Shown: positions 7,820 to 26,092 of the stretch, piece after piece
Layout: each line of letters starts with the position of its first letter
Numbering within the stretch: the first letter of the stretch is position 1
NCBI GenBank assembly: GCA_946408655.1
Contig: CAMJTE010000002.1
Span: 1-44,551 of the forward strand
Source: an uncultured Bacillales bacterium
Lineage (GTDB): Bacteria > Bacillota_I > Bacilli_A > RF39 > UBA660
Direction: 5' to 3'
Length of the DNA stretch: 44,551 nucleotides
Made by a program: the position numbers and the translations under genes
The notes under the pieces: generated by a model
Database searches by the model: none
What the model was told of the DNA's origin: nothing
What the model saw: the letters and a program-made list of their open reading frames with translations, nothing else

Positions 7820-7828
7820 GAGGGAATA

Positions 7829-9265
7829 ATGAGAAAATTAGGCAAAAAAAATCAAATATTGTTTATTATTCTTTCCTTGATTACTGTTTTTATGATTGCA
7901 ATCTTTATATATGTAATCATGCTTATGTTAAGAAAAGGTAATAATATATATGAATTAAAGAAAAACAGTTACTTATATAATTCTGATTATGAGATTATAG
8001 AGGTTCAAGGTAGTTTAAAATTAAAAAAGAGTTTTGATGGTAATTACTATTTAAAAGATAATCGTAAAAGTACAAAGATTGGTAAGAATGTTATACTAGA
8101 TAATTATGGTAATCATAGACTATATCTATATGGAATTTTATATCAAGTTTTTACAGATGGATCGATAGAAAAATTATCTAATGAAAATAAAGTATTAAAA
8201 ACGCCACCAACTAAATTCTTTAAACTAGGTGATAGAAAATACCTGATGGTTGATGATAATATTTCTTCATCAGATTCTTCTATTAAAACATCTGGATATT
8301 TAATTGTAGAGATTAATAAAGAAGGAAATGCAACACTTGTTAATGATAAAATGAATATTAAAACTATTAATCCAATTATTTTATATGGTAGTACTTTTGA
8401 TTTTGATATCGCTAATGAAAAATTGATTTATCATAATCAAGAGATTGATTTAAAAAATATTATTGGTAGTAGTAATAAGTATAAAAAAGAAACTAAAAAA
8501 GATGAAAAAAAAGAAACTGATAATAAAACTAGTACTACAGATAATACAAATTCTTCAAATCAAAATACTAGCGATTATTATGAACAGTATTTAAAAGATG
8601 TTATTAATAGTTATAATAATTTATATAATAGTGTAGCTAACATAAATGACTCAGTTGCGACTAAGGTAAATAAAGGAGATATTTACTATGAGTTTAGTAA
8701 ATGGGCTGTTATGAAGAATGTTTTAGTATCTAGTACATCTATTACTATTAATTATAATATATATGATCCTAACGATGAATATAGTAGTGTATTTGTATAC
8801 GTTACAGATAAAAAGAATTATGATAAAAGAGTTGAATTAAATGAAAATGCTACTAGCATGAGTATTACGAACCTTGATCCGAATGAAAGATATGTTATTA
8901 ATTTTGGTTATGTTCTTTCAGAAGATGGAAGGGAAGAAGTTATTGATGTTTCAACTGTGACAACAAAGAGTCCTAAAATTGAACTTAAAATTACTAAAGT
9001 TATGAAAAATAAAGTATACTATATTATTAATATGGATGATAAATTTGCTTTATTAAATAGTGATTTAGTACTATATAATCGTAATAGTAATGAGATGATA
9101 AAAAAAGAGAATATTGATAATATTACAAAAGGGTATAATGGTGTTATTGAATATGATAGTGATATTAATCCAAATATTCAACTAAAATTAGAAAATATGT
9201 GCTATAATATAAGTGATAACAAATGTATAGGATATCTAACTGTTAATGTTAGTGATGCATTATAG
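7829..9265 (+). CDS. Membrane-anchored surface protein (478 aa) with the same architecture in miniature
   Basis: SD AGGAGGG lies 9 nt after the previous stop. The N-terminal anchor is ILFIILSLITVFMIAIFIYVIMLML, and a K/E/T/N-rich linker lies at ~8474-8573. An FN3-like motif is present (ITNLDPNERYVINFGYVL). Confidence 0.8.
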   Translation: MRKLGKKNQILFIILSLITVFMIAIFIYVIMLMLRKGNNIYELKKNSYLYNSDYEIIEVQGSLKLKKSFDGNYYLKDNRKSTKIGKNVILDNYGNHRLYLYGILYQVFTDGSIEKLSNENKVLKTPPTKFFKLGDRKYLMVDDNISSSDSSIKTSGYLIVEINKEGNATLVNDKMNIKTINPIILYGSTFDFDIANEKLIYHNQEIDLKNIIGSSNKYKKETKKDEKKETDNKTSTTDNTNSSNQNTSDYYEQYLKDVINSYNNLYNSVANINDSVATKVNKGDIYYEFSKWAVMKNVLVSSTSITINYNIYDPNDEYSSVFVYVTDKKNYDKRVELNENATSMSITNLDPNERYVINFGYVLSEDGREEVIDVSTVTTKSPKIELKITKVMKNKVYYIINMDDKFALLNSDLVLYNRNSNEMIKKENIDNITKGYNGVIEYDSDINPNIQLKLENMCYNISDNKCIGYLTVNVSDAL

Positions 9266-9528
<263 letters not shown>

Positions 9529-9529
<1 letters not shown>

Positions 9530-10257
9530 TGACAGATGTATTTATAATAATAACTATTCTTTTTGTTATGTCAGTAATAATATTCTTTCTTATAAAAAAA
9601 ACAGTTAAGGATATTAATCATAACTCAAAAGAATACTATTTATTGAAATTACAAGACTATGATAATTTGATTAGTGATAATAAGGAAAAGCAAATAAATA
9701 CAAAGGTCGAAGAAAATGTGATAAACAGAGATTTGACTTCTGTAAAAGAATCATCAGAAAAAGTGCTGCTTGAATCAAATCCTGAATATCAGATCGATGA
9801 TTTTTTAAAGTTAGCTAAAGATGTAGATAAAGAGTTTAATATTGATGTTAATGAAATTATACGTAATTTTTTGGATAAAAAAATAATTGATACTAGTATG
9901 AATTATTTTTCTAATTTAGTATTGGTAAAGAAAAAAATTAATAGTATTGGATTATATAATCTTGCAGTAGATTTAAATGGACTTAAGAAGTTATTAACAG
10001 AGGTTAATCAGATCGATGAATTAATAGTAAATAAATATAAAAGTTCATCGTATGAAAAAAGTATCATGGGATTCTATAATTTTTTAAAAAGCGAAATTAA
10101 TTATAATGATCCTATCATATATATAGAAGTAGGAGATAAGAACATTAGTTTTAATAATGTTAATGATAATATAAAAACAGTCTATAATCCTAATATTTAT
10201 AAGGGAATAATAATTAAATACAAAAATAATATGTATGATTATAGTTTAAGTTTTTAA
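9529..10257 (+). CDS. Single-pass membrane protein in the b/delta position (peripheral-stalk candidate)
   Basis: The ATG overlaps the c-like stop by 1 nt (TAATG). It has an N-terminal TM (VFIIITILFVMSVIIFFLI), a charged helical region and then a globular C-terminal part. The assignment rests on its position between c and alpha, as in atp operons; no sequence motif was recognised. Confidence 0.5.
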
Positions 10258-10266
10258 GGAGGATAT

Positions 10267-11590: not shown

Positions 11591-11598
<8 letters not shown>
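10267..11598 (+). CDS. F1-ATPase alpha-subunit-like protein (443 aa, shortened)
   Basis: Walker A GDKKTGKT (canonical GDRQTGKT). Further matches to alpha-subunit signatures are DDLKKHADAYREIGLMSSKTPGRDAYPADIFYFHSRLLEKG, GSISILPIMETKSGDITDYISTNIISITDGQIVL and RPAIDYGLSVSRLGGAVQ. Confidence 0.9.
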
Positions 11599-13942
<2,344 letters not shown>

Positions 13943-13943
13943 A

Positions 13944-14471
13944 ATGTTAGACTATTTAAATAAAATTATTAATTATTTTCCATTCTTTATTTCTTTTTTT
14001 GTAATAATTATATTTTTATCTGTTATTTTGGATAAAGTTATGAAGAAGAATAAAAATAATATTAAAATTTTTGGATTATTTATGGGATTAAGCAATAGAA
14101 ATATATTATCATTGACATTTATTACTACTTCTTACATATTTTTTATATGGCAGTTATTCTCTAAATCAGTTGATTTAGTAACACTCGGTGTGATTTTTAC
14201 ATGTTTTGTTTTAACAGATATAGTTTCAAAACAATATATAAAAATTATTTTTTCCATAATAAGCTCTGTATTACTTTATCTAGGATTATATTGTAAATGT
14301 GTTTTCTATGATTATATAACAACTATTCACTCATCATTCATCGAAATTATATTATTAATACTTTTAGTTTTATTTTTATTCTTCTATATAAGTTATTTTT
14401 TAATCAAGAAGGCTGACTATATAGTTGTCCAAAATAAATATATAAAAAAAATGAATGGTAAAGATTCTTAA
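13944..14471 (+). CDS. Polytopic membrane protein (175 aa, ~5 predicted TM helices), unknown family
   Basis: It starts 1 nt after the epsilon-like stop and has an SD AAGGAG. The sequence is highly hydrophobic. No a-subunit signature (conserved Arg in LRLFGN context) was recognised. Confidence 0.7.
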   Translation: MLDYLNKIINYFPFFISFFVIIIFLSVILDKVMKKNKNNIKIFGLFMGLSNRNILSLTFITTSYIFFIWQLFSKSVDLVTLGVIFTCFVLTDIVSKQYIKIIFSIISSVLLYLGLYCKCVFYDYITTIHSSFIEIILLILLVLFLFFYISYFLIKKADYIVVQNKYIKKMNGKDS

Positions 14472-14486
14472 ATTTAAGGAGGAATT

Positions 14487-15206
14487 ATGAATATTAGCAA
14501 ATTACTTAATAATAAGTTATTTAAAGTTATAATTGGTTTAATACTTACTATTTTTCTAGCACTTATTATTTTTATGGTAATAAGAATTAATAATAAAGAG
14601 TATAAATATGAAATTCAAGATGAGAAAGTTTACACTTATATTGGTGAGAGAAAATATGAGTATAATTCTAAGATTACAGTAGATGCAACTGGAAGTGTAT
14701 CTAAGATAAAAAGTAAACGTGCTTCTTTAGAAATATCTTCATATCCAATATATTATACAACAAAAAAACAAGTTGTATTTGCATCAAAAATGGCTTTGAT
14801 AAATCCACTTAATGATATCTCACAAAACTCGACACAAAAAATTTTTACAATTAATAGAACAATAAATAATGTTTATATGAATAGTAATGGTAAAGAGATA
14901 GATGTTGGTGAATACTTCTTATTCAATGGGAATGATATGTATTTTTTCTTAGATAGTGTCGATATTTCATTTAATAATTATAAAGAGACATTACCACCTT
15001 TTTCATACGTTATACATGATATGGCAAATGAATTATATATATATAATTATGATAGAGATGAAATTAATAAATTTAAAGAAATTACATCAGATGTTATAAT
15101 TAGCACAAGTAATTATTCAATTAATTTAGCTGATGATTCGGTTAAATGTGGTGATAACGAGGCTCTTTTAATTAAAAATATTGAATTTTTAGATTCATTA
15201 GAATAA
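14487..15206 (+). CDS. Membrane-anchored protein (239 aa) consisting of the anchor plus the stand-alone juxtamembrane module
   Basis: SD AAGGAGG. The N-terminal anchor is FKVIIGLILTIFLALIIFMVI. The rest resembles the first ~200 extracytoplasmic residues of the 1769-, 478- and 3135-aa proteins (alignment by eye). Confidence 0.7.
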   Translation: MNISKLLNNKLFKVIIGLILTIFLALIIFMVIRINNKEYKYEIQDEKVYTYIGERKYEYNSKITVDATGSVSKIKSKRASLEISSYPIYYTTKKQVVFASKMALINPLNDISQNSTQKIFTINRTINNVYMNSNGKEIDVGEYFLFNGNDMYFFLDSVDISFNNYKETLPPFSYVIHDMANELYIYNYDRDEINKFKEITSDVIISTSNYSINLADDSVKCGDNEALLIKNIEFLDSLE

Positions 15207-15225
15207 TGATATTGGTGGTGATTTG

Positions 15226-18200
15226 ATGAAAAAGATTATGGTATCTATCGGTGTATTATTTATTATAATGATAATTATTTTAATATTATCATTTACTAAG
15301 ATTGGTTTTTTCCCAGAAGATGGATATATAATAATGTCATCAAAATTGGAGGCAAGTCTGTTAAATGGTGACGGAACAACTGTAAAGGTATATAAAATAA
15401 ATAGAAATCAAAATATTTATAAAAGGTGGAATAATATATACGTTGGGGAAAATAATAAGAAAAAGATTTATGATGAAACCCCACTGTTCTCACAAGATAA
15501 ATCAAGGATTATTAACTTGTTTTCTGAAGGTAATGCAATTAGCAGTAATTATGAAAAAGAAAAACTATATAAAAATATAGCACTCTCGAATGGTAGATTA
15601 TATAATTATCACGATATGAAAACAGTTGATGATAATAACTACATATTCATGGAATTAGATAATAACATATTTATAAATTCATATGACGTTGAAGTAAATA
15701 CTTTACTTACTAAAACTATAATCCCAAAAAGTTCATTTATATATTTTCTAAAAGATGAGATTAGATATTATTATTATAAAGATGGTAAATATATATATGA
15801 TACAATAGTTGGAGTAGATTTAAATAGTAATATTATAATTAATGAAAATAATACTATTTATTATGATTTTTTAGATAAACTTGGGGTTTTTTCAAAAAAA
15901 CAGAATGAACCAGATAAAGAAATAGAGCAAGATGAAAATAGTGACCAGAATAGTCAAAATATTAATGAAGAGAAAAAAAAAGATAATAGTACTTCGGAAG
16001 AATATATTGCTCCTAGTGTTAAATTATCCAATATGACTACACAAACTTATTCTGCATATTTTAACTTATTAATTAATGATTCACAAGATAGAATAAAAAA
16101 AACAGTTACTATCGAATTTATAAAAGATGGTAAAACATATTATAAAAAATCTTATAAGGATTCTAATAATTATGATGTTTTAGGATTATATCCAAATCAA
16201 GAGTATAGAGTTGTTGGTAGTTATGTTTATAATAATAAAAATAATAACTTAGTTAAAGTTGAGTTTTTTAATGAGATTATTAAGACTAAAAATATTGATA
16301 ATAAAACTATTAAATTTGATTATCAGATTGAAAACAATTACTCAAATAAACTTAATATAAACAAATTACAATTAAATATTGATGACAAAGATTTATTAAG
16401 TGGTATATCTGCAATTGGAGTTAAAATAGATAATAGGGAAATATTATTGGATTCTAAAAGTACAAATGATATTAAAAACGGAAATAGTGTTAAACTCTCC
16501 ACTGGAGAGGTGTTAAAATCAAATACAAAATATGACTTTGAATTTGTCGCTTATGATATTGCGCAAAATGAAATTCCAATTAGTAATGGTAAACAAAGTT
16601 ATACCACATCAAAGAAAATTCCAACATTTAAGGTTAGTATCAATAAAAAATCATATAGTACAGCAGATATTAATGTCGAACTAATAAACAGAGATGATGT
16701 AAAACTTAATAATGTTAGATATGTATTAAAAGCTAATTCGAGTGGGGATGCAATGATAAATGATGTTAATTTAAGCGGGGATACATCAATCATTAAATTA
16801 ACCAAATTAGATGAAGATAATATATACAATATACAAATAATTGGTGATTATGATTTAGCGGATGGTAATGGCATTGTAAAGAATGCTATTTTGAAAGATA
16901 ATATTGAGTTTGTAACTGAATCATTAAAGAATCATCCTATCTATTATGAATTTATAGCAAATGATATAACATCTAATAGTGCAGATATAAAGTTACAATT
17001 GAACAACTATTATAAAAATGATTTAATCAATCAATTAATCTCAGATATAAAGATCAAATTGTCTGAGACAGAGGATTATATAGTTTTGACTCCCGATGAA
17101 GTGAATGAAATTAAATTAGGGAAACAAGTTAATATAAAGTTTGATAATTTGAAATCTAATAATGAATATAGATTAGAGATAGACACAAAATTAACTGAAG
17201 CTGATAAAAAATTAAATGTTAAATCAAAAATTAAGTCCGATTCTTTTACAACATTTAAGAAAAAACCTGAAGTATCGTTTACAAATTTATTTACTGCTAA
17301 ACATTATATTAACATAGAATATATGGTAGATGATAAGGATGAAGCATTATATAATGGAAAAGCTTACTTAAAAGTTTATAAAATCGATAGTAATTCTTGC
17401 GTTGATGAGAATGATCTTGGATGTGAAATTGAATCAACAGTTTATAGTGAACTAATTAGTACAAAAAATGGGGAAAAAATCGGAAATATCGAAATTAACA
17501 AATTAGACCCTGGAATTTATAAGATAGAAGTAATCGCAAAAAAATTATCTGGCCTCATTGAAAATAATGGTTCTAATAAAACAATTGCTAGTATACAGTT
17601 TAAGACAAATGATGCTATTGATGGAAATATAAATCTAAATTATTTAATGAAAAAATCAGATGGAATTAATTTATTTGACATTAATGATTCTGAAAAAATA
17701 AAATATCTACTTACTGGTACAGATGCATCTGCTAACTATAAAATGAATTTAAAAAATAATACTATAGAAATGAATGTTACAAATGGTAAGGCCATATTTA
17801 AGTTGTATATGCCAGAGTATAATAACAAAATACTTAGAATGTCATATATACCAACGATTGAAACTGATTCACAAAATGCTCAAATAAAGATAATATGTAC
17901 AGGGAATAAATGTACTGACAAAGCATTAGTTGCAAATAATACAAGAGAATATGTAGATGTTAAAGTATTAAATAATTATATTTCATTTGATATTAGTGTT
18001 CCAGATTCAACAAATGAAAATATTAAATTAATTTTAAAGGATTTAATGATATCGGAAACTGATTCTATTGATTATTCCCCTTATAAATCTAATAATAAAT
18101 TTATTGGCAGTTTTAATATTATTGGTAATGAACTAGATTCCATTAGATATGTTACAAGGATACACGATTATAAGAATGATATAGATATAAGTGATAATAT

Positions 18201-21200
18201 AATTGAATGTATAGGAGATGATTATTGTAATTATAATTATTTTGATTTTAAGAGAGCTTTACATTATAGTGTAGATTTGTATGTGATAGATGAAAATACA
18301 TCTTTAGAGTATAAAATAGATGAATTATCATTTACAACTGAGAAGGAAATTAGGAGTATTAATAATATTAAAGAGTTTTTTGCAGTTCATACCAAAGGAA
18401 GTTATATTGTAAATGAGGATCTTGATGTATCTAGTGTTAGTAATTCAATTCCTCAGTTTTCGGGTAGTATAGATTTTAATGGGCATAAAATAATTACAGA
18501 TATTTCAAAAAGAAATACTATATTTGGCCACCTAGGTAGTAGTGCTGTAATCAAAAACTTTGTATTAGATATTAAGTGTGCAAATAAAATACCTAATGGT
18601 GTGTATGTGTTAAACACATATAATGATGGAAAAATTGAAAATTTTATTGTCAATTATTTAGAAGAGAATTATATGTATGATGATACACCAAATAAAGTTG
18701 ACACTTTTGTTACAGCATATAATAATGGAATAATTCAAAACTTTATTATTAATTTTAAAAAAACATTTACCGTTAATTATATTTTTTCAGCTCTTTCTTA
18801 TTCAAATACTAATATAATTAGAAATGGATATTTGTATGGAAAAAATATAAAACTTGTACCATCTACAACATATAATTCTATATATACAGTTGGACTAGTT
18901 TCTATATATTCTTCAGGCGATATTTATAATATTTTTTCAACTGTTGGTATAGATAGTGATTATAATTTTGAAGGTACACAATATAATGTTAATACGATCG
19001 GTACACTTGTTGCTAGTAATCAAAAAAATGTCTCAAATGTTTATTTATATACAAGTGGAAAATTTAAGTTCAAAAACGATGTTGTAATTGGGGCTTATAA
19101 TAACACATCAACAAAAGTAACAAATACATACTATATAGCTGAAAATAGTATTACAGATAATAGAGATAGAAAATCTGTTCGAACTTTTAAATCATCTTTA
19201 TTATCGCCAGAATTTCATAAGAATACCTTGAATGATAAAAATGAAAAAATATTTAATATTACGAATAATGTAATAAATGGCTATTATCCACAGCTAAGAC
19301 TTAGTAACTCAATGCCAAGACAGGATTTAATTGAACTCCCTACAGTGAATACAAATATTGGAGATATCGATTTTGTAAATATTAAAAACACAAATGCTTG
19401 TTATGATAAATATGATTATTATAGTGACAATCCTAGGTATATACATGAATGCAACTTATTAAAGGATAGTAATTATCTTAAAAGTTTAAATAGTAATTAT
19501 ACTGATGAGGAGATTAATTCCATTGTAAGTAAAGTTGAAAATAACAATTATGAATATATTGTTGAAGTAAATTTTGACAATAAAGAGCTAAAACCCATTA
19601 ACAGTATTTCTATTGATAAAATTAATAAAATAGATATATTATCGCAGTATAATGATGTTGAAACAGGATACGTTGTTGCTATATTAGGATTAAAAGATAT
19701 ACAGCAATATAAATCGCTTTATACACTAACAAGTATTAATGGTGTAGATATAAGTAATAGGTATATTGAGCTTGAATTATATAAGTTAATTGCTACAAGT
19801 AAAAATAATGAAGAAAATATTAATTCATTTATTAATGCAATTCAAAATCCTGGAAGCTATGTTCTTATGAATGATATAGATTTTAAGAATTCTAAATATA
19901 ACTCAGTGATAGTTAATAATGCAAATATTGATGCAAATAACCATAAATTTACAAATTTAGAAAATGGAACATTGTTTAAAGAATTAAACTTTTCTACATT
20001 AAAAAATTTAAATATTGATAATTATAATTATAAGTTTGATATCGGAAATAATTATGGTGGTTTTATAGGTCAAGCAAATTATTCTACAATTGACAATGTT
20101 CATATTAATAATGGTAAGTTTCAAATTGATAATTCGTTTGGAACAATAGTTTATTCTACAATGCAAACTTATATTAAGAACTCTTCTGTTAAAAATTCAG
20201 ATATTATTTCTAAAGAAAACAATAACTCATATAGATATGTTGGAGGAATATCAGGATATAATCAATATTCTAGGATTACTAATTGCTTTGTTTCTAATCT
20301 AAATATTGATGTGGAGACAAATACAAATTTTATTGGCGGAATAACTGCATATACTTCTGATTCAAGAACATTAGTTTCTAATACATATAGTGATGGAGTA
20401 ATTAAGTCGTATGGAAATATGATAGGGGGGATTGTCGGAAATAATAGCGGTACTATAAATAATTCGTATTCAAAAATGACGCTTTTTACTAGTGGGAACA
20501 AAATTGGAGGAATTGCTGGTGAATCATCATCATTCTATGTAAGTAATAATTTATTTTTAGGAAATATAATAAATACTAGTGAAAACGATGATGTAAGGGC
20601 AATTGTTGGAAATTTGGATATAAGCTCAAGTAATTATTTATATGATAAATCTAGAATAGACAGTAATTATAGTTGGACTGGAGAGTTGATAATTGATTCT
20701 GAAACTTTAAAATCATTATTGTTCTACACTAAATTAATAAATTATAGCGATTCATATAAAATTGATGATTCTATATCAAATGAAATTTTACCTAAATTAT
20801 TCTTTGATTCAAGAAATGATTATTTAGTTCCTAATCAAGATGATTTGTATGTAAATAATAATGCCTCATCAAGTATTAATTTCTCTTTGAAAAATTTTGA
20901 ATATCGTGAAGATGAGAATGAATTTAGCGTTATATTAAGCGTGGATAATTATTTAGATTTTGATAGTTTAGATTTTAAAGACATTGATGTTATATCTGAT
21001 GGATTAAAATACAAATCTAATTCTTATAAAGATGGAATTTTAGAAATAGTATTTACTCCAAAACTATATTTAGATTATTATATGATTAGTTCGATAAATA
21101 GAATTAATATTAATGGTAATGAAATAGATTCTAATAAAGTTGATATAAGTATTGATAAAAAAATTTATAAAAGAATATCATCTGTAAATGATTGGATGAA

Positions 21201-24200
21201 TATTGATGGAGTGGCACAAAATTACATTTTAACGGATGATTTAGATTTTTCAGATTACGCTAATAATTCAAAAATAGTTAATAAGAACATTAATAGATTA
21301 GAATGTGAAAAAGAAGATTATTGTATGATTCAAAATATAGAAAGTAATATAAACCATTCATTGATAAATCATTTATTAATTTCTGTTTCAAAAGTTTATT
21401 TTAAAAATATTAGGTTAAATTCCGCTTTAACTGATAATTATGGAATCATTAATACTTTGTACGGTTCCATTAATAATGTAGTATTTGATGAAATAAATAT
21501 AACTGGTTTTGAAGGTGTTGGAATAATTGCGAATGATTATTCATATAATATATCTAATATTAATATGAATAATATTGAAATTACAGGTGCATCAAATATT
21601 GGTGGTTTATCTGGAATTTCTTATAACAAGGAAATGAAAAATATAAATGCTAAGAGTATAAACATAAATGTTAAGAGAGACAATGATAAAGAAAATAGTA
21701 ATATTGGTGGCTTAATTGGAGATAACTATGTTTTTGGTGCTGATTCAAAGGCTTATCAATCTAATGTTAATTTATCTTGTTTAAATATTAGGTACTCTGA
21801 TAATAATAGTTATAACAATAGTACTATAAAGAATGTTGGAGGATTAATAGGTCAGGGAAGAGTTATTACTAACGCAACAATAGATGGATGTGATGATGGG
21901 ACTCCTTCAATAATTAATCTTCCAAATGCTAATAATATTGGTGGTTATGCAGGCTTTCTTCCTGAAAACGCATTAGGATATAGTGGTATTGGGGGTGGAG
22001 AAGAATCTGCAATTAAAGAAAAATATACATCATTTAACATTTCAAATACTTTTATAAATGGTGGAGATTCTGTAGGTGGTTATGTTGGTTCTATGGATAT
22101 AGGTACATATATAATTACTAATGTTAAAGTTTCAAATAATACAATAGTAAGTGGTAAAAATAGTGTTGGAGGTATAATTGGTAGCTGTAAAGATGTAGTC
22201 TTTAATAATATATTTGTTGATGGGATAACTGTTAACGCATCAGCTGATAATGCTGGAGGAATTGTTGGTAAAGGTTATACATATAATACGGATGTTGCTG
22301 TTAAAGATAGCACTGTCATCGCAAATAATAATGCTGGAGGAATTACCGGATATTTATATGTTTTATCATTTGGACATCCTCAGTCTAGAATAATAGTAGA
22401 AAATACGAATATTACAGCAAGGAGAAATAATGCTGGAGGTTTAGCGGGGGCATTTTATTCTCCACAATCTTCTGGTATAAATGCATTGACCAATGCGTCA
22501 ATTACAAACACAAAAAATTGTAGGATTAAAAGTTATACCAATTCTGGTGGAGCCGTAGGATATTATAATAATATTAATGCAAATGGGGCTTATAATTATT
22601 TAGAACTATATGGCATTCACATATTAAATTACGATATAGAATCTACAAGCGGCTATGCTGGAGGTTTGTTAGGTGCTTATGCAAATGATACTAATACAAT
22701 ATTAAATCATACAATATATAATAAAAATTATACAAATATTATATATGCTAATATCTATTCACCTATTCATTCCGAAAATCTGTATCCTGCTTTAAAAGAT
22801 TATAATAGTGATAGCGGCAATTATGTAAATAATTATGTTTATAAGTACAATAAAATAGTAAATGGCGATGAAACATATAAAGTAAATGATAAAAATATTG
22901 ATAATAGTGATATTGAAATTAACAAGTCAACAGGAAATTATTTGTTTACTTATGCTGATGTAAATATGTTTAAAGATGAAACCATTTATGATAAAGCATT
23001 TTTTGATATAAGTAATATTAATACTCATTTTCCAAAAATTATTTTTAGTTCATCCGGAAATGTATCGTTAAATAACTTTAGTCAGATTCCATATCCTGAT
23101 CAAAGTAGTTTAACATCATTAAATTCTTCAATGTCTAATAATAGTAGTGCGCTAAATATTACATATACTGCCAGCAATTACAATCAAACATTAGATATAC
23201 CAGATATATATGTATATCCAAGTGATGTAGATAAAATAAATATTGATTTTTCTGGTTACAATCAAGACCTAAAATTTAAAATTAATGATGGCGATTACAA
23301 GGTCATTGATAAGAAGACTTATACGTTATATTATAATTATTTAGAGAATTTTACTATTACTATTACTGATGGATTTAATAATTATAAATATGATTATAAA
23401 AAAGAAGATTTAATAAATGATGTATTTACTTTAGATAAAAATTATTACATTCTTAAAGAGAATAATCTTATAACAAATGATAATCTTATTGGAAATTATA
23501 TTCATATATTTAACGGGAAGTTGTTAACAAATGATAGTAAGGTAGTAGATTTATCTGATAAATCTGAATATACAATTCCATATAGCAATTTTGAAGAAAC
23601 AACTCAAAAACCATTATATGAAATTAGGTATCAAGATGATATAATAGAAACATACTACTCATATAGTGATATAAGTGGTACTATAAAAAATAATATAGAA
23701 TTCTTATCAAAGAGTAATGAAATATATATGATATCTGCGTTTGGTATTGATACAAATATAAAAAGTAAAAACTTTATAATTGATTCTTATAATGGAAGCA
23801 AGTATGAAGTTGTATTAAAGAATGGAAAATTATATAATTTATATGATAATTTATTATTCCCTGATGGATTTATTAATGAAGGAATAAAATCTATTTCTAA
23901 TAATATTGATGGAAATTCTGATTTAATTGCTGTTTTATATGACAATGGAAACTATATGTGTTTTAACTATAAAACAAAAGAAATAATTACATCAAATAAA
24001 AATAGTTATGAACCTATTACGAATTATTTGGGAAGAAACCTAAAAAGGTCAATTACGTATAAAGCAAATGCGTTAAATAATGTTCCAAATGAAAATATTG
24101 AGTCATATAATGAAAGTAATAAGTTGGTTGATAAGTTAAATGAAAATCCTATTGTTAATGTAGTTGAGAACAATTCAGATAATATCAAAGATATTAATAT

Positions 24201-24630
24201 TGATAACAACAAAAATAATGATAGCACCAATGATAAAACCAATGTTACAAATAGTAATAAAAATGATATTCATAAATCTGAAAATAAATCGAAAGTAACT
24301 CAAGATTATAATGTAAATAATACCGATAAATATAATTATACTGTTTACTATAATCAAGAAACAAATGATTATGAGGTTTATGAATTAAATTCATTTATAT
24401 CTAATGAAAACACAGTAAGTTTAAATGATACTTCAACTAATGAAACTTCAGTTAATGAAGTAATAAATTCCGATAATACATTAAAGAAATATTATTACAG
24501 TAATAAGAAGAATAAAAATAGTAAGACATGGAGATATATTTTTGAATTAATATTCATTTCTATTATTACTTTGATATTTGTTTTATACTTATATCTACGT
24601 AACAAAAAGTTAAAGTATAATTCTCATTAA
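15226..24630 (+). CDS. Giant surface protein (~3134 aa) anchored at both ends, with juxtamembrane module, linker, FN3-like array, three beta-helix/GLUG modules, N-rich tract and C-terminal TM
   Basis: The likely start is ATG 15226, since SD GGTGGTG lies at 15214-15220 and the track starts at TTG 15223. The N-terminal TM is VSIGVLFIIMIIILILSF. The C-terminal TM is YIFELIFISIITLIFVLYLYL followed by RNKKLKYNSH (~24530-24627). FN3-like motifs include LGLYPNQEYRVVGSYVY, LKSNTKYDFEFVAYD, NLKSNNEYRLEIDTKL and LDPGIYKIEVIAK. Confidence 0.85.
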   Translation: MKKIMVSIGVLFIIMIIILILSFTKIGFFPEDGYIIMSSKLEASLLNGDGTTVKVYKINRNQNIYKRWNNIYVGENNKKKIYDETPLFSQDKSRIINLFSEGNAISSNYEKEKLYKNIALSNGRLYNYHDMKTVDDNNYIFMELDNNIFINSYDVEVNTLLTKTIIPKSSFIYFLKDEIRYYYYKDGKYIYDTIVGVDLNSNIIINENNTIYYDFLDKLGVFSKKQNEPDKEIEQDENSDQNSQNINEEKKKDNSTSEEYIAPSVKLSNMTTQTYSAYFNLLINDSQDRIKKTVTIEFIKDGKTYYKKSYKDSNNYDVLGLYPNQEYRVVGSYVYNNKNNNLVKVEFFNEIIKTKNIDNKTIKFDYQIENNYSNKLNINKLQLNIDDKDLLSGISAIGVKIDNREILLDSKSTNDIKNGNSVKLSTGEVLKSNTKYDFEFVAYDIAQNEIPISNGKQSYTTSKKIPTFKVSINKKSYSTADINVELINRDDVKLNNVRYVLKANSSGDAMINDVNLSGDTSIIKLTKLDEDNIYNIQIIGDYDLADGNGIVKNAILKDNIEFVTESLKNHPIYYEFIANDITSNSADIKLQLNNYYKNDLINQLISDIKIKLSETEDYIVLTPDEVNEIKLGKQVNIKFDNLKSNNEYRLEIDTKLTEADKKLNVKSKIKSDSFTTFKKKPEVSFTNLFTAKHYINIEYMVDDKDEALYNGKAYLKVYKIDSNSCVDENDLGCEIESTVYSELISTKNGEKIGNIEINKLDPGIYKIEVIAKKLSGLIENNGSNKTIASIQFKTNDAIDGNINLNYLMKKSDGINLFDINDSEKIKYLLTGTDASANYKMNLKNNTIEMNVTNGKAIFKLYMPEYNNKILRMSYIPTIETDSQNAQIKIICTGNKCTDKALVANNTREYVDVKVLNNYISFDISVPDSTNENIKLILKDLMISETDSIDYSPYKSNNKFIGSFNIIGNELDSIRYVTRIHDYKNDIDISDNIIECIGDDYCNYNYFDFKRALHYSVDLYVIDENTSLEYKIDELSFTTEKEIRSINNIKEFFAVHTKGSYIVNEDLDVSSVSNSIPQFSGSIDFNGHKIITDISKRNTIFGHLGSSAVIKNFVLDIKCANKIPNGVYVLNTYNDGKIENFIVNYLEENYMYDDTPNKVDTFVTAYNNGIIQNFIINFKKTFTVNYIFSALSYSNTNIIRNGYLYGKNIKLVPSTTYNSIYTVGLVSIYSSGDIYNIFSTVGIDSDYNFEGTQYNVNTIGTLVASNQKNVSNVYLYTSGKFKFKNDVVIGAYNNTSTKVTNTYYIAENSITDNRDRKSVRTFKSSLLSPEFHKNTLNDKNEKIFNITNNVINGYYPQLRLSNSMPRQDLIELPTVNTNIGDIDFVNIKNTNACYDKYDYYSDNPRYIHECNLLKDSNYLKSLNSNYTDEEINSIVSKVENNNYEYIVEVNFDNKELKPINSISIDKINKIDILSQYNDVETGYVVAILGLKDIQQYKSLYTLTSINGVDISNRYIELELYKLIATSKNNEENINSFINAIQNPGSYVLMNDIDFKNSKYNSVIVNNANIDANNHKFTNLENGTLFKELNFSTLKNLNIDNYNYKFDIGNNYGGFIGQANYSTIDNVHINNGKFQIDNSFGTIVYSTMQTYIKNSSVKNSDIISKENNNSYRYVGGISGYNQYSRITNCFVSNLNIDVETNTNFIGGITAYTSDSRTLVSNTYSDGVIKSYGNMIGGIVGNNSGTINNSYSKMTLFTSGNKIGGIAGESSSFYVSNNLFLGNIINTSENDDVRAIVGNLDISSSNYLYDKSRIDSNYSWTGELIIDSETLKSLLFYTKLINYSDSYKIDDSISNEILPKLFFDSRNDYLVPNQDDLYVNNNASSSINFSLKNFEYREDENEFSVILSVDNYLDFDSLDFKDIDVISDGLKYKSNSYKDGILEIVFTPKLYLDYYMISSINRININGNEIDSNKVDISIDKKIYKRISSVNDWMNIDGVAQNYILTDDLDFSDYANNSKIVNKNINRLECEKEDYCMIQNIESNINHSLINHLLISVSKVYFKNIRLNSALTDNYGIINTLYGSINNVVFDEINITGFEGVGIIANDYSYNISNINMNNIEITGASNIGGLSGISYNKEMKNINAKSININVKRDNDKENSNIGGLIGDNYVFGADSKAYQSNVNLSCLNIRYSDNNSYNNSTIKNVGGLIGQGRVITNATIDGCDDGTPSIINLPNANNIGGYAGFLPENALGYSGIGGGEESAIKEKYTSFNISNTFINGGDSVGGYVGSMDIGTYIITNVKVSNNTIVSGKNSVGGIIGSCKDVVFNNIFVDGITVNASADNAGGIVGKGYTYNTDVAVKDSTVIANNNAGGITGYLYVLSFGHPQSRIIVENTNITARRNNAGGLAGAFYSPQSSGINALTNASITNTKNCRIKSYTNSGGAVGYYNNINANGAYNYLELYGIHILNYDIESTSGYAGGLLGAYANDTNTILNHTIYNKNYTNIIYANIYSPIHSENLYPALKDYNSDSGNYVNNYVYKYNKIVNGDETYKVNDKNIDNSDIEINKSTGNYLFTYADVNMFKDETIYDKAFFDISNINTHFPKIIFSSSGNVSLNNFSQIPYPDQSSLTSLNSSMSNNSSALNITYTASNYNQTLDIPDIYVYPSDVDKINIDFSGYNQDLKFKINDGDYKVIDKKTYTLYYNYLENFTITITDGFNNYKYDYKKEDLINDVFTLDKNYYILKENNLITNDNLIGNYIHIFNGKLLTNDSKVVDLSDKSEYTIPYSNFEETTQKPLYEIRYQDDIIETYYSYSDISGTIKNNIEFLSKSNEIYMISAFGIDTNIKSKNFIIDSYNGSKYEVVLKNGKLYNLYDNLLFPDGFINEGIKSISNNIDGNSDLIAVLYDNGNYMCFNYKTKEIITSNKNSYEPITNYLGRNLKRSITYKANALNNVPNENIESYNESNKLVDKLNENPIVNVVENNSDNIKDINIDNNKNNDSTNDKTNVTNSNKNDIHKSENKSKVTQDYNVNNTDKYNYTVYYNQETNDYEVYELNSFISNENTVSLNDTSTNETSVNEVINSDNTLKKYYYSNKKNKNSKTWRYIFELIFISIITLIFVLYLYLRNKKLKYNSH
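20230..22690 (+). repeat. GLUG-type (xGGhxG) beta-helix repeat region inside the giant CDS
   Basis: At least 15 copies of the motif are present: VGGISGY, IGGITAY, IGGIVGN, IGGIAGE, IGGLSGI, IGGLIGD, VGGLIGQ, IGGYAGF, VGGYVGS, VGGIIGS, AGGIVGK, AGGITGY, AGGLAGA, SGGAVGY and AGGLLGA. The DNA repeat AATAATGCTGGAGG recurs at ~22248, 22328 and 22427. Confidence 0.75.
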
Positions 24631-24721: not shown

Positions 24722-26092
24722 ATGTATAGTTCTTTTGTAAAATGTTTGAATTCAATTGTTAAATTAGATGAGAAAAGTTATGAAAATATTAAAAATCAAT
24801 TTGGAAAAAATACTGATTTGTATTTTGAGGAGTATATTTTATCAATAGATGAAACCGATTATGATAGTTATGATAAAGTTGATTATTATATTCGAGTAAA
24901 AAGTGATAATGATAATGATAAGGATATGGATATTTCAAATGATATGGATCCTAATTTTGTTATATATTATAACCAAATAAGAAAATATCCTATACTTGAC
25001 CAAAGGGAAGAAAAAGAAATAATTAGGAAAATAAGAGATTTAGAACTAGAGTTTAGAAAAAATAATATTAATGATAGTTACTTAGATGCAATTATGCTTA
25101 AGTATGGTTTTACTAAAGATTTGAAACATGATTTAGAATCGAGAAAGATACAGTTAAGGTATTTATGTAAAAATATAAATAATATAGATAATAATGATAT
25201 GCATATCTTTCAAATGTATGTTGATTATATAGATGCTAAGGAGTATTTTTATAATTGTAACTTAAGATTGGTTGTCTTTTTTGCCAAATTAATAGCTTAT
25301 AATACAAACGTTTTATTAGACTCTATTCAGAATGGTAATATTGGACTTATGAAGGCAATTGATAATTATGATTTAGATAAAGGAACAAAGTTTTCGTCGT
25401 ACGCTTCGTGTTGGATAAAAAATTATATTGCTAGGAATAATAAGTATAATAATTCAGGTTTGAAAACTCCATATCATATCATAGAAACTATGGACGCTTA
25501 TAAACGATTTATAAACGAATACTATGTTTTAAATGGTGTAATGCCATCATATGGTAAGAGGTTTGATTTTTTCTATGATGAGATGAAGAAGAAAGGTATT
25601 TACCAAAAGGAGACTGAAGACCAAAAGAAAAAAATAATATGTCAATATATGGAAGAGATAGAGATGGCTATTTATACGGAAAACGTTACTTCTTTAAATG
25701 TTTCTACGTCTTCAGTTGATGATGATAGAGTTGAGTTAATTGATTTAGTAGAAGATGAAAGTGTTGATATAGAAGAAAGTTTAAATAAGAGCGTAATAGA
25801 TGAAAACTTAAGATTGGTTTTTAATGAATTATCTAATCGAAAAATTTGTGTATTGTTACTTAGAAATGGAATTAAAATAAGTAAATACTTATCATTAGCC
25901 GAAACTAAAGAAGTTTTTAGTAAATTATCATATGAAGAAATATTTAGATTGTGGAATGGGAAATACTATTTTACGCTTAATGAGATAGCTTTATTATTCT
26001 CGGTTACTTCTGAGAGAGTTAGACAATTGGAATCAAATGGGATAAAAAAAATAAGAAAGTATCAAAAAAGATTTATTAGTTACTTAAAGTAA
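24722..26092 (+). CDS. Sigma-70 family RNA polymerase sigma factor (456 aa, group 1/2-like but divergent)
   Basis: Region 1.2-like DPNFVIYYNQIRKYPILDQREEKEIIRKI. Region 2 NLRLVVFFAKLI...IQNGNIGLMKAIDNYDLDKGTKFSSYASCWIKNYIARN. Region 3 KTPYHIIETMDAYKRF. Region 4.2 FTLNEIALLFSVTSERVRQLESNGIKKIRK. The N-terminus is acidic. Confidence 0.85.
   Translation: MYSSFVKCLNSIVKLDEKSYENIKNQFGKNTDLYFEEYILSIDETDYDSYDKVDYYIRVKSDNDNDKDMDISNDMDPNFVIYYNQIRKYPILDQREEKEIIRKIRDLELEFRKNNINDSYLDAIMLKYGFTKDLKHDLESRKIQLRYLCKNINNIDNNDMHIFQMYVDYIDAKEYFYNCNLRLVVFFAKLIAYNTNVLLDSIQNGNIGLMKAIDNYDLDKGTKFSSYASCWIKNYIARNNKYNNSGLKTPYHIIETMDAYKRFINEYYVLNGVMPSYGKRFDFFYDEMKKKGIYQKETEDQKKKIICQYMEEIEMAIYTENVTSLNVSTSSVDDDRVELIDLVEDESVDIEESLNKSVIDENLRLVFNELSNRKICVLLLRNGIKISKYLSLAETKEVFSKLSYEEIFRLWNGKYYFTLNEIALLFSVTSERVRQLESNGIKKIRKYQKRFISYLK

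Follow-up and report, generated by a model that had tools for sequence, protein, structure and literature searches.

A 3134-residue surface protein, apparently tethered to the membrane at both ends, encoded in one operon with a divergent F1-like ATPase of an uncultured Bacillales bacterium

The locus and its genes

The window, i.e. the whole stretch of 44,551 nucleotides that was analysed, contains a tight operon of 11 genes (2510-24630), the terminal one of which encodes a giant protein (Table 1). The reading frame of the giant is listed as 15223..24630, and its ATG at 15226, which is preceded by GGTGGTGA, gives a product of 3134 aa. The frame is open throughout without interruption, and the ORF is a genuine gene that encodes a cell-surface protein. 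The intergenic gaps from 7819 to 15226 range from -8 to +19 nt. A promoter-like element, TTTACA-17-TG-TATCAT, was found at 2448-2476 and is statistically not distinctive; DNA tandem repeats within the operon were none of them notable. In the Rfam scan of the window the single match was a tRNA at 37665-37738, which lies beyond the operon.

Table 1. Genes of the operon and domains of the giant protein (positions in the window)
Feature	Position	Strand	Evidence or remark
1769-aa surface protein, first gene; one N-terminal TM, FN3 domain	2510..7819	+	hydrophobic aa 8-26; Pfam fn3 E 1.8e-8
478-aa bitopic surface protein, N-terminal TM, FN3-like C-terminal part	7829..9265	+	fn3 E 2e-4
F-type c subunit, 81 aa, without ion-binding carboxylate	9284..9529	+	Pfam ATP-synt_C E 3.7e-7
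242-aa protein: N-terminal TM, long charged helix, conserved C-terminal globular domain	9529..10257	+	atpF/atpH position
F1 alpha-like subunit, 443 aa	10267..11598	+	Pfam ATP-synt_ab E 2.4e-69
F1 gamma-like subunit, 255 aa	11591..12358	+	Pfam ATP-synt E 6.1e-24
F1 beta-like catalytic subunit, 447 aa	12363..13706	+	Pfam E 8.1e-65
79-aa protein, epsilon position	13703..13942	+	ORF; position after beta
175-aa polytopic membrane protein, 4-5 TM	13944..14471	+	hydropathy; not recognisably subunit a
239-aa bitopic protein, N-terminal TM and ~200-aa ectodomain	14487..15206	+	hydropathy
Giant gene, 3134 aa	15226..24630	+	last gene of conserved module
Giant: N-terminal hydrophobic helix, aa 1-22	15226..15291	+	KD 3.18; AF2 helix 2-21
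Giant: membrane-proximal beta-rich N-domain, aa 24-220	15295..15885	+	AF2 pLDDT about 75-88
Giant: FN3/beta-sandwich array, aa 264 to about 1030	16015..18315	+	AF2, Foldseek, hhalign internal repeat
Giant: module 1, degenerate beta-helix, aa 1040-1500	18343..19725	+	hhalign vs module 2
Giant: module 2, GLUG beta-helix, aa 1505-1965	19738..21120	+	3n6z profile match, Pfam Glug aa 1669-1694, hhalign
Giant: module 3, long GLUG beta-helix, 11 xGGhxG coils, aa 1970-2560	21133..22905	+	hhalign, motif count
Giant: conserved all-beta C-domain, aa about 2655-2950	23188..24075	+	AF2 pLDDT 75-91 for aa about 2655-2825
Giant: N/D/K-rich low-complexity stalk, aa 2981-3038	24166..24339	+	composition; AF2 pLDDT below 50
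Giant: C-terminal TM helix (aa about 3100-3124) and basic tail RNKKLKYNSH	24523..24627	+	hydropathy, AF2, homologues

The 1769-aa protein has homologues upstream of the ATPase genes in six of the related loci, and the gene of the 478-aa protein directly precedes that of the c subunit in 26 or more loci. The position, size and architecture of the 242-aa protein make it a candidate for a b-like peripheral stalk; no significant Pfam, NCBIfam or PDB match was obtained for it, the family profile included; an OSCP match of one of ten family members at E 0.031 is noise. The 79-aa protein, a homologue of which comes after beta in 28 loci, is too short for the C-terminal helical hairpin of epsilon and gave no Pfam or PDB match, even by profile; its position and size suggest that it is epsilon. 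The polytopic slot is occupied by an ORF with 4-7 TM in 29/29 loci, and the 239-aa bitopic protein is encoded directly upstream of the giant in nearly all of them. A membrane-proximal domain common to the giant and the 239-, 478- and 1769-aa proteins was considered and rejected, BLAST similarity being weak and profile-profile probabilities 0.5-7.6%. The sigma-70-like gene at 24722-26092 was likewise judged not to belong to the system, since none of the related loci has it; in L061, a close relative whose genes downstream of the giant differ from those of the window, TelA/AAA genes take its place.

Domain structure of the giant protein

The initial annotation of this DNA had proposed a ~3134-aa protein with an FN3-like array, three modules opening at ~18465, ~19930 and ~21290, GLUG-type repeats densest at 20230-22690, a beta-rich region and an N/D/K-rich stalk before the C-terminal TM helix, and each of these elements was recovered. 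In the AlphaFold2 (AF2) model of aa 1-570 (mean pLDDT 80.5) the N-domain is followed by a disordered linker (aa 223-257, pLDDT below 50) and by beta-sandwiches at 264-353, 364-460 and 467-563. The FN3 part matched tandem FN3 structures in Foldseek (E 5e-9, probability 1.00), and by profile self-comparison of the giant the FN3 repeat reaches about aa 800.

The three modules, whose opening segments (aa about 1080, 1568 and 2021) lie at the nucleotides just mentioned, emerge only with profiles, internal repeats not being found in the BLAST self-comparison of the giant. They are mutually homologous, with profile-profile probabilities of 99.3% for modules 1 and 2 (E 1e-20), 99.8% for 2 and 3 and 92% for 1 and 3. 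Fifteen xGGhxG motifs occur at nt 20053-22657, whereas 0.19 are expected from 1000 shuffles, none of which had more than 3. Pfam Glug on the giant alone scored 20.0 bits, the gathering cut-off being 20.5; several homologues have precomputed PF07581 matches, and the family profile matched the GLUG domain of PDB 3n6z, a 'putative immunoglobulin A1 protease', with E 1.4e-7. HExxH is absent from all 3134 aa, and no Pfam or NCBIfam match to peptidase families was found in the giant. Run against the NCBIfam models, the giant and the 1769-aa protein yielded nothing above noise.

The beta-rich region corresponds to the all-beta C-domain of the AF2 model, for which Foldseek returned WD40/BamB-type matches (E 6e-6) with a TM-score of 0.1-0.2 only, so that its fold may tentatively be called propeller-like. 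The stalk contains 18 N, 8 D and 8 K among 58 residues.

Membrane anchoring

The hydropathy scan (Kyte-Doolittle, 19-aa window, threshold 1.6) gave exactly two hydrophobic segments in the giant, aa 4-22 (score 3.18) and aa 3104-3122 (score 2.48), the latter followed by YLRNKKLKYNSH. Both termini are helical in AF2 (aa 2-21 and 3100-3132, the latter with pLDDT about 86). The hydrophobic helices read initially at the two ends, the C-terminal one with its basic tail, are therefore present, and homologues do keep both of them: the two-helix design is found in 21/21 close relatives and in 86/89 further full-length members of the family. Taken singly, the N-terminal helix occurs in 21/21 and 86/89 and the C-terminal helix, which had been the one open to challenge, in 21/21 and 89/89 of the same sets. 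The C-terminal tail of the 89 further relatives has on average 4.75 K+R vs 0.78 D+E; the positive-inside bias and both helices are kept across the family.

The N-terminal helix is likely retained as an uncleaved signal-anchor, because its uncharged stretch extends over ~21 residues, no conserved A-x-A site lies near it among the 21 close homologues, and the first strand of the N-domain directly abuts it in the AF2 model. It could also be cleaved off as a long signal peptide of the Gram-positive kind. As far as can be read from its sequence, the giant appears to be tethered in the cytoplasmic membrane at both ends (N-in, C-in), with ~3080 residues outside.

The ATPase subunits

The location of the giant gene in an ATPase operon, also noticed in the initial annotation, was confirmed, but its significance had been understated: the ATPase is divergent and F1-like, its c subunit is ion-blind and the synteny with the giant gene is strict. 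In the alignment with the c subunits of E. coli (D61), PS3 (E56) and I. tartaricus (E65), an acidic residue (D/E) in TM2 is absent in 27/27 sequences (the window and 26 homologues), and the family retains the ring-packing GxGxGxG and the RNPE loop contacting gamma/epsilon. No Pfam or NCBIfam match to subunit a (ATP-synt_A) or delta/OSCP was obtained in any ORF of the operon. The polytopic protein was considered as a degenerate subunit a, its 'LSNRN' recalling 'LSLRL', and this was rejected, as relatives have K, L or Y in place of the Arg; among 26 sequences of this subunit there is not one conserved charged position. Judged by these sequence features, the ATPase has lost its ion path.

The catalytic elements are kept. 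Both the window and the family have conserved Walker A/B, GERxxE and Arg finger motifs; within the family this holds for Walker A and the Arg finger of the alpha-like subunit, and for the DELSEED-like loop of the beta-like one. The alpha-like subunit aligns to residues 12-430 of the 502-aa canonical alpha, ~70 C-terminal residues being absent. Every subunit falls under the NCBIfam cut-offs of the canonical atpA/D/G/E, alt_F1F0, MMOB1660/1670 and MSC_0618/0619 models; for the canonical ones the scores were 411 vs 554 bits (atpA), 446.4 vs 462.85 (atpD), 58.6 vs 194.45 (gamma, atpG) and 37.8 vs 71 (c, atpE). The best PDB match of the beta-like subunit was F1 beta (362 bits), M. mobile G1-beta scoring 306 bits. 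By these comparisons the ATPase is divergent, F1-like and distinct from the known families.

Synteny and distribution

The order p478-c-p242-alpha-gamma-beta-eps-polytopic-bitopic-giant was found in 29 related loci and, permuted, in a 30th. The hosts are MAGs labelled Clostridia, Bacilli, Lachnospiraceae, Peptococcaceae, 'Tenericutes' and Ca. Pelethosoma, and the GC content of the loci ranges from 0.24 to 0.61. Three or four surface-protein genes per locus are strictly syntenic with the ATPase genes (29 loci and the permuted one). Identity across loci is 56-67% for beta and merely 23-28% for the giant, which is the most variable component of the conserved 11-gene apparatus. The genome collection was scanned with the peptide pattern ...NGY[IVA]YG; the window lineage has NGYLYG, which falls outside the pattern, and for this reason no close relative was retrieved. 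The closest ATPase subunits among the scanned loci are those of a 'Bacilli' MAG (L016).

More than 120 clusters of the beta subunit at 66-70% identity were found, ranging over uncultured Bacillota of animal and human gut. Relatives are publicly annotated as 'F0F1 ATP synthase subunit beta', and the cluster as an ordinary ATP synthase with hypothetical proteins. The giant family comprises about 500 clusters at 50% identity; extra copies occur as paralogues in tandem arrays distant from any ATPase genes, and some copies of the giant are therefore not physically linked to the motor. Since one or more host contigs carry flagellar rod genes, motility does not require this system as its sole device. 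Nothing relevant on such a cluster outside mycoplasmas was found in the literature searched, which to date reports a motor-surface protein linkage of this kind for mycoplasmas alone.

Proposed working and alternative explanations

The reading that we prefer, and hold to be moderately probable, is that of an ATP-driven, ion-independent rotary motor of divergent F1-like type coupled to wall-spanning surface proteins, among them the double-anchored giant. The giant would pass from its N-terminal anchor through the membrane-proximal domain into an FN3 rod rising outward, beyond which the three GLUG beta-helix modules and the all-beta C-domain would be displayed, and it would return to the membrane by the flexible N/D/K-rich stalk. 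The core of the apparatus would consist of alpha3beta3, gamma, the small epsilon-position subunit, the c subunit and the b-like stalk, and the ATPase parts and the surface proteins would presumably be assembled into one complex. ATP hydrolysis in the cytoplasm would most likely turn or strain the gamma/c rotor against the novel membrane subunits, and the mechanical work would then be passed across the membrane to the anchored ectoproteins. Such a coupling of ATPase and giant, with transmission of force, might result at the cell surface in conformational cycling, e.g. catching, pulling and releasing of a ligand, or in movement. Similar workings have been suggested for the F1-like ATPases of mycoplasma gliding (Type 2) and of the MIB-MIP system (Type 3), and F1-like motors serving surface proteins have precedents (PMC12994834, PMC11864180, PMC3369863). 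A bolder proposal, which we regard as possible but doubtful, is that of a new class of ATP-driven surface motor in walled Gram-positives, in which the ion-free c-ring would act as a mechanical transmission that twists or pulls the double-tethered wall-spanning giant, one end moving relative to the other, and so would bring about gliding or catch-and-release adhesion; the gliding and MIB-MIP motors of mycoplasmas would descend from this lineage of machines.

Several other explanations of the giant have to be considered. The probability that the long ORF arose by a false join in the assembly, or is a pseudogene in decay, is negligible: some giant paralogues in other MAGs are indeed broken into two or three ORFs, but full-length colinear homologues with 66-70% identity exist in three independent assemblies, so that the test for a chimera was negative, and the frame is unbroken, both ends of the protein are conserved and there are no notable DNA repeats. 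C-terminal sorting signals have the generic form of a motif, a TM segment and a basic cluster, and the C-terminal helix with its basic tail may be seen as a cleavable signal of this kind (sortase, exosortase or rhombosortase type), the mature giant then being wall-linked or released. This is very improbable, since LPXTG is missing (pattern LP.[TSA]G over 3134 aa), no C-terminal sorting-domain model of NCBIfam matched the giant with E of 1 or less, the stretch immediately preceding the helix carries no motif conserved among the 21 homologues, and the operon contains no sortase-like gene. Rather less improbable, though still unlikely, is that the giant acts passively as an Ebh-like adhesin, with its signal peptide cleaved and only the C-terminal TM left, the linkage to the ATPase genes reflecting co-regulation or a shared envelope function. 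A C-terminal TM with a basic tail anchors giant Gram-positive adhesins such as S. aureus Ebh; domains of the FN3, GLUG beta-helix and propeller-like kinds typically serve in binding, and the paralogue arrays are unlinked to ATPase genes. It is difficult to reconcile this with a gene order kept in 29 loci (plus the permuted one) over a GC range of 24-61% despite the low identity of the giant, with an ATPase that, unable to pump ions, has no evident function alone, and with an N-terminal helix that is conserved, continuous with the folded N-domain and devoid of a conserved cleavage motif.

As for the ATPase, it might be an export or assembly motor comparable to FliI/FliJ of flagellar type III secretion, which helps to translocate or insert the long surface proteins and does not actuate them later. 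The homology of F1 alpha/beta and gamma with the T3SS ATPase and its stalk, secondary NCBIfam matches to FliI/SctN, the N-terminal hydrophobic targeting segments on all four large partners and the tightness of the operon are in favour of such a role; yet we consider it quite unlikely, because the heterohexamer pair, gamma, the c subunit with ring motif and the stalk-like protein make up a full rotary set, unlike the homohexamer of an export ATPase, the operon encodes neither an export gate nor a Sec-like component, and giant paralogues elsewhere bear the same N-terminal segments, which is compatible with ordinary Sec insertion. That the genes specify simply the ordinary F1Fo ATP synthase of the cell, flanked by adhesin genes by chance, is close to refuted. 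The public annotation of the relatives agrees with it, beta is just 16 bits short of the atpD cut-off and the order c-(b)-alpha-gamma-beta-(epsilon) mirrors atpEFHAGDC, but the carboxylate of c is missing in 27/27 and subunits a and delta are missing too, alpha, gamma and c score far under the cut-offs, alpha lacks its C-terminal part and the epsilon-position protein has just 79 aa, and surface-protein genes are always attached.

If the preferred reading of a rotary ATPase acting on double-anchored surface proteins is correct, the cluster may be of wider interest. How torque or force crosses the membrane is a question that the mycoplasma F1-like systems pose, and the present cluster is possibly a simpler model of a rotary ATPase re-purposed for mechanical work at the cell surface. 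With the c subunit and stalk kept and ion coupling lost, it could represent an evolutionary intermediate. It also raises the question of how mechanical work is delivered through a thick peptidoglycan wall, to which a loop with two anchors, one leg being the rigid FN3 array and the other the flexible stalk, suggests a testable answer.

Comparison with known systems

The giant shares with GLUG proteins and Gram-positive IgA1 metalloproteases (3n6z; PF07581) the beta-helix with GG(h)xG coils and the characteristic opening segment '...D(L/I)DF...G...(D)GNGH(K/T)I.N(L/I)'. It differs from them in having neither an HExxH protease domain nor LPXTG and in the serial arrangement of its three modules inside what appears to be a membrane-anchored loop. 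Staphylococcal Ebh has a very long repetitive ectodomain, a C-terminal TM with a positive cytoplasmic tail and a cleaved YSIRK signal peptide. The long ectodomain of the giant on a C-terminal TM with basic tail resembles this arrangement, whereas the domain content is unrelated and Ebh is not known to have an ATPase partner.

With canonical F1Fo the cluster has in common the gene order c-(b)-alpha-gamma-beta-(epsilon), the catalytic motifs and the c hairpin with GxGxGxG and the R(N/Q)PE loop. It differs from it in the missing carboxylate, subunit a and delta, in the truncation of alpha and of the epsilon-position protein, and in its sub-equivalog scores.

In M. mobile, as here, an F1-like ATPase occurs together with very large surface proteins. 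Gli349 and Gli521 each have a single terminal TM anchor, and Gli349, with about 3180 aa, is near the size of the giant; the giant of the window, unlike these, appears to be anchored at both ends. The beta-like subunit (447 aa) is without the N-terminal extension of the twin motor, the scores against the MMOB1660/1670 cut-offs were 367 vs 600 and 373 vs 850 bits, and among the PDB matches G1-beta scored lower than ordinary F1 beta. In M. mobile the genes of the surface giants lie apart from the ATPase cluster; here the two form a single operon. For the Type 2 G1-ATPase of M. mobile with Gli349, Gli521 and Gli123, a transfer of force across the membrane to the surface giants has been proposed, Gli521 being a membrane protein that acts as a crank and Gli349 the leg (PMC11864180).

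The Type 3 'F1-like X0' ATPase of mycoplasmas is required for the function of its MIB-MIP surface proteins (PMC3369863, PMC12994834). Like it, the window carries a presumably additional F1-type alpha/beta/gamma/epsilon-like set beside membrane proteins of unknown family and surface proteins. It differs in keeping an ion-blind c subunit and a b-like stalk protein, in a polytopic subunit with 4-7 TM as compared to 12, in surface partners that are FN3/GLUG giants and not MIB/MIP, and in its hosts, which are walled Bacillota. Alpha scored 298 vs the MSC_0619 cut-off of 520 and beta 396 vs the MSC_0618 cut-off of 570, and NCBIfam detected no homology of the remaining subunits to the Type 3 models. 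The Type 2/3 cluster has been described as seven genes, among whose products are a protein with 12 TM, a small cytoplasmic one and a large one carrying two TM helices at its C-terminus, with no c or b (PMC12994834); here, single-TM partners and a protein with 4-7 TM are encoded beside a c subunit and a b-like protein. What the present cluster shares with the Type 2/3 systems is an F1-like ATPase genetically coupled to surface proteins and not to an ion-translocating Fo, a relation that is here known from the genes.

Anatomy of the giant protein

The window has a GC content of about 25% and contains an uninterrupted reading frame at 15223-24630, whose start is likely the ATG at 15226, 7 nt downstream of GGTGGTGA; the product, here called the giant, has 3134 residues. 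A Kyte-Doolittle scan (19-residue window, threshold 1.6) located exactly two hydrophobic segments, at aa 4-22 (3.18) and aa 3104-3122 (2.48), the second followed by YLRNKKLKYNSH, as the initial annotation had read them. Neither an LPXTG nor an HExxH motif was found in the protein by motif search.

Two parts of the giant, aa 1-570 and aa 2575-3134, were modelled with AlphaFold2 from small family alignments, with a mean pLDDT of 80.5 and 61, respectively (see table). The three N-terminal beta-sandwiches matched tandem FN3 structures (contactin, fibronectin, titin) in Foldseek (E 5e-9, probability 1.00), in agreement with the FN3-like array proposed earlier, and the beta-rich region expected after the modules was recovered as a confident all-beta segment. 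The C-terminal part gave matches of the beta-propeller type (WD40, BamB) with good E-values and TM-scores of only 0.1-0.2, and a propeller-like fold is suggested tentatively. The N/D/K-rich stalk assigned before the last helix was also recovered, these residues making up 34 of the 58 at aa 2981-3038.

The three serial GLUG/beta-helix modules postulated from the sequence proved homologous when slices of the giant-family alignment were compared profile to profile. Module 1 (aa 1030-1500) matched module 2 (1505-1965) with a probability of 99.3% (E 1e-20, 371 columns), module 2 matched module 3 (1970-2560) with 99.8%, and modules 1 and 3 matched with 92% across the opening ~150 columns; module 3 showed internal periodicity. 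The dense GLUG repeats were reflected in 15 xGGhxG motifs at nt 20053-22657, against 0.19 expected and a maximum of 3 in 1000 shuffles. The Pfam Glug model scored 20.0 bits on the single sequence (threshold 20.5), and the family profile matched the GLUG domain of PDB 3n6z, a 'putative immunoglobulin A1 protease', with E 1.4e-7. All elements of the initial annotation were thus recovered at the positions it gave. The giant belongs to no curated family, its relation to GLUG domains being confined to the beta-helix modules. A subgroup of homologues (P0005-P0008) carries a glycine-rich domain (PF12810, ALK_LTK_GRD) inserted before module 1, which is absent from the window giant.

Genes of the operon and modelled regions of the giant
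Feature	Position	Strand	Method
1769-aa protein, N-terminal TM, FN3 domain	2510-7819	+	
p478 (478-aa surface protein), N-terminal TM, FN3-like	7829-9265	+	
ATP-synthase c subunit	9284-9529	+	
p242 (242-aa protein), N-terminal TM	9529-10257	+	
Alpha-like subunit	10267-11598	+	
Gamma-like subunit	11591-12358	+	
Beta-like subunit	12363-13706	+	
79-aa protein	13703-13942	+	
Polytopic protein, 175 aa, 4-5 TM	13944-14471	+	
Bitopic protein, 239 aa, N-terminal TM	14487-15206	+	
Giant	15226-24630	+	
Giant, N-terminal helix	aa 2-21		AlphaFold2
Giant, beta-rich N-domain directly after the helix	aa 24-220		AlphaFold2
Giant, disordered linker	aa 223-257		AlphaFold2
Giant, three beta-sandwiches	aa 264-353, 364-460, 467-563		AlphaFold2
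Giant, confident all-beta region	about aa 2655-2825		AlphaFold2
Giant, low-confidence low-complexity region and short conserved beta-hairpin	within aa 2575-3134		AlphaFold2
Giant, terminal helix	aa 3100-3132		AlphaFold2

Family and membrane topology

A search of a 5.8-billion-protein collection returned 20 homologues besides the window protein, all of 2800-3650 aa and none with a name. Three of them, from independent assemblies, are colinear with the giant at 66-70% identity over 100% of the query, which excludes the assembly chimera considered in the initial annotation; together with the same operon in the close relative L061, such homologues refute the ORF as an artefact.

An N-terminal and a C-terminal hydrophobic segment with a basic tail are present in 21/21 family proteins. 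Among 1.84 billion cluster representatives, a profile built from the last 560 residues detected 511 proteins at E <=1e-3 and 343 at E <=1e-30, the full-length ones having 2700-4450 aa and the match at their extreme C-terminus. Both terminal helices, whose retention in homologues the first reading proposed to check, occur in 86 of 89 further full-length representatives; the other three start within the N-domain and appear N-terminally truncated. In these 89 the tails after the last helix, of ~12 residues, average 4.75 K+R versus 0.78 D+E, a charge pattern that satisfies the positive-inside rule at both ends. The predicted topology that fits is N-in/C-in, with ~3080 residues outside, and the giant is almost certainly a real surface protein with two terminal helices. 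Its N-terminal helix is likely to be retained uncleaved, since the uncharged stretch extends over ~21 residues, an A-x-A motif is not conserved and the folded N-domain begins its first strand right after the helix. A cleavable sorting signal at the C-terminus would be an alternative reading of the last helix; against it, no conserved motif precedes the helix in 21 homologues, no NCBIfam sorting-domain model matched and no sortase gene was found in the operon.

Operon, host and synteny

The giant gene is the last of eleven plus-strand genes spaced by -8 to +19 nt. Elsewhere the window encodes, among others, a PASTA-domain PBP, a polysaccharide deacetylase, VanZ and SpoVS, which point to a walled Bacillota host of a spore-forming lineage. 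The next gene, 91 nt past the giant at 24722-26092, encodes a sigma-70-family protein of 456 aa that has regions 2 and 4 and an N-terminal extension of ~170 aa; this gene is not conserved beside the cluster in any relative, and TelA and AAA genes take that place in L061. A tRNA gene (37665-37738, +) adjoins a 185-aa phage-integrase-family ORF (37872-38429, -) covering only positions 27-169 of the Pfam model, and looks like the remnant of an element integrated at a tRNA site was left there. The 441-aa ORF at 40007-41332, between spoVS and a NifU-like gene, gave no Pfam match.

With the giant-family alignment as query and one genome per GTDB species, 58 loci were found, every one in uncultured MAGs, mostly from animal or human gut samples and labelled Clostridia, Bacilli, Lachnospiraceae, Peptococcaceae, Family XIII, 'Tenericutes' or Ca. 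Pelethosoma (Mycoplasmatota incertae sedis at NCBI). In 29 loci the giant is directly preceded by ATPase genes, in the order p478-c-p242-alpha-gamma-beta-small-polytopic-bitopic-giant, complete where the contig is long enough. The GC content of the loci ranges from 0.24 to 0.61, and the beta subunits are 56-67% identical to that of the window, the giants only 23-28%; among the loci retrieved, with a peptide pattern that missed the lineage of the window itself, the nearest ATPase subunits are those of a 'Bacilli' MAG (L016). That the linkage has outlasted this much divergence speaks for a functional unit, and the giant and a non-ion-pumping F1-like ATPase very probably constitute one.

Variants of this arrangement were also observed. 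L019 (9300-29000) has the same gene set with a different cut point, the order being bitopic, giant, 1769-aa homologue, p478 homologue, c, p242 homologue, alpha, gamma. In L003, L011, L021 and L042 no ATPase was found despite upstream room, and tandem giant paralogues are present; L004 has a similar array, and L031 a single giant with no ATPase matches upstream. The five arrays hold two or three paralogues each, ATPase genes not being nearby, some intact (3150-3195 aa, both TM helices) and others split into 2-3 ORFs, which could be pseudogenes, phase variation or assembly errors. In the MAG BRZ_MF bin81, with at least six giant copies on four contigs, arrays coexist with an ATPase-linked copy. 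L028 (JBLNAG010000001.1, 25% GC) carries a complete cluster under the label 'Ignavibacteriales bacterium', all other carriers being Bacillota, and is probably mis-binned or mislabelled. The higher-GC carriers L037, L046, L051, L056 and L059 (GC 0.36-0.46) have a polytopic protein of ~405 aa with 4-7 TM, versus ~175 aa, and a bitopic protein of 426-571 aa, so that the membrane part of the machine varies in size between lineages. Flagellar basal-body rod proteins (L062:19351-21145) are encoded on the contig of P0018 (3655 aa), the most divergent giant examined, which indicates that at least some carriers are flagellated.

The ATPase

The best PDB matches of the beta-like and alpha-like subunits were F1 beta (362 bits) and F1 alpha (305 bits), and conservation covers Walker A, Walker B, GERxxE, a loop resembling DELSEED and the Arg finger of alpha; by sequence both are plainly of the F1 type. 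The c subunit strongly conserves the ring-packing GxGxGxG and the R-N-P-E loop, which in F-ATPases contacts gamma and epsilon. Its TM2 is free of acidic residues both in the window and throughout 26 homologous clusters, with A, V, F, L or I in place of D61 (E. coli), E56 (PS3) and E65 (I. tartaricus). A C-terminal LLF(F/Y)NP motif, located where TM2 ends on the outside, is strongly conserved too (c genes of the window, 9284-9529, and of L005-L058), whereas canonical c subunits show no conservation in this region; an extracellular partner could make contact here.

Pfam and NCBIfam searches matched no operon ORF to subunit a or delta/OSCP, and the polytopic protein has no conserved charged residue in 26 sequences, hence no counterpart of the a-subunit Arg. 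The alpha-like subunit is without ~70 C-terminal residues, and the 79-aa protein is too short for the inhibitory C-terminal helices of bacterial epsilon. The canonical NCBIfam cut-offs were missed by alpha (411 vs 554), beta (446 vs 463), gamma (59 vs 194) and c (38 vs 71); the alternate (N-type) F1F0 models were likewise below cut-off, as were those of mycoplasma Type 2 (367 vs 600, 373 vs 850) and Type 3 (298 vs 520, 396 vs 570). Judged from these features, the operon ATPase is not a chemiosmotic enzyme, its ion-translocating half being missing. A housekeeping ATP synthase is effectively refuted by the carboxylate-less c subunit, the sub-cut-off scores and the want of a polytopic Arg counterpart. 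The p242 protein is laid out like a b or b-delta stalk, its N-terminal TM and long charged helix leading to a globular C-terminal domain that is conserved; it may be a b-like stalk and the 79-aa protein epsilon-like, identities that profile searches did not confirm. More than 120 beta-like clusters (90% identity level) share 66-70% identity with the window beta and, where a source name is given, are called 'F0F1 ATP synthase subunit beta [Bacilli bacterium]', so that the system is hidden under routine annotation.

Possible function

The F1-type head with gamma thus appears catalytically intact, and the c subunit, keeping its ring-packing and rotor-contact motifs, is predicted to be unable to bind ions. 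The membrane subunits of the operon belong to no known family, and four proteins with large ectodomains are encoded together with the ATPase, wherever the contigs of the 29 linked loci reach. All these parts may form one complex, in which ATP hydrolysis would do mechanical rather than osmotic work, delivered to the ectoproteins. Alternatively, the ATPase may serve as a motor for exporting or assembling the operon's long proteins; however, the cluster has full rotary architecture and no export gate, and the unlinked giant paralogues seem able to use ordinary insertion. Between mechanical actuation and export or assembly, we give the former about an even chance. A reading of the giant as a passive Ebh-like adhesin, next to the ATPase by location only, is difficult to square with a synteny that does not vary and with an ATPase lacking its own ion function.

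The build of the giant suits a walled cell. Its FN3 rod gives a rigid N-terminal leg, its low-complexity stalk a flexible C-terminal one; by our own estimate either is long enough to cross a Gram-positive wall, and the beta-helix modules and the C-domain would be displayed beyond it. It is tempting to speculate that, both ends being held in the membrane, a relative displacement of the anchors is converted into tension or torsion in the displayed part; the stator, for example, might hold one anchor, and the rotor or the polytopic subunit act on the other. Movement is no likelier an outcome than adhesion or ligand handling, and the rod genes on one host contig imply that, if movement is produced, the system is not the sole motility device.

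Comparison with known systems

Functionally, the nearest systems are Types 2 and 3 of the mycoplasma F1-like X0 ATPases, for both of which mechanical work has been proposed in the literature. The Type 2 enzyme is proposed to drive gliding by a force that crosses the membrane and reaches Gli521, the 'crank', and Gli349, the 'leg' (PMC11864180), and Type 3 was described in a 2026 study as 'specific to mycoplasmas'. The present cluster, falling short of the family models, is a member of neither type, nor does it belong to the canonical or N-type F1Fo enzymes. The 12-TM and two-TM proteins of mycoplasma X0 are absent here, a c subunit and a stalk-like protein being found instead. No non-mycoplasma counterpart was met in the non-subscription literature searched. 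The cluster is best described as an F1-like ATPase genetically coupled to surface proteins, in which the c subunit without an ion site, the giants with predicted anchors at both ends and the walled hosts are new; since it keeps more ancestral F1Fo parts than the mycoplasma versions, it may represent an evolutionary intermediate.
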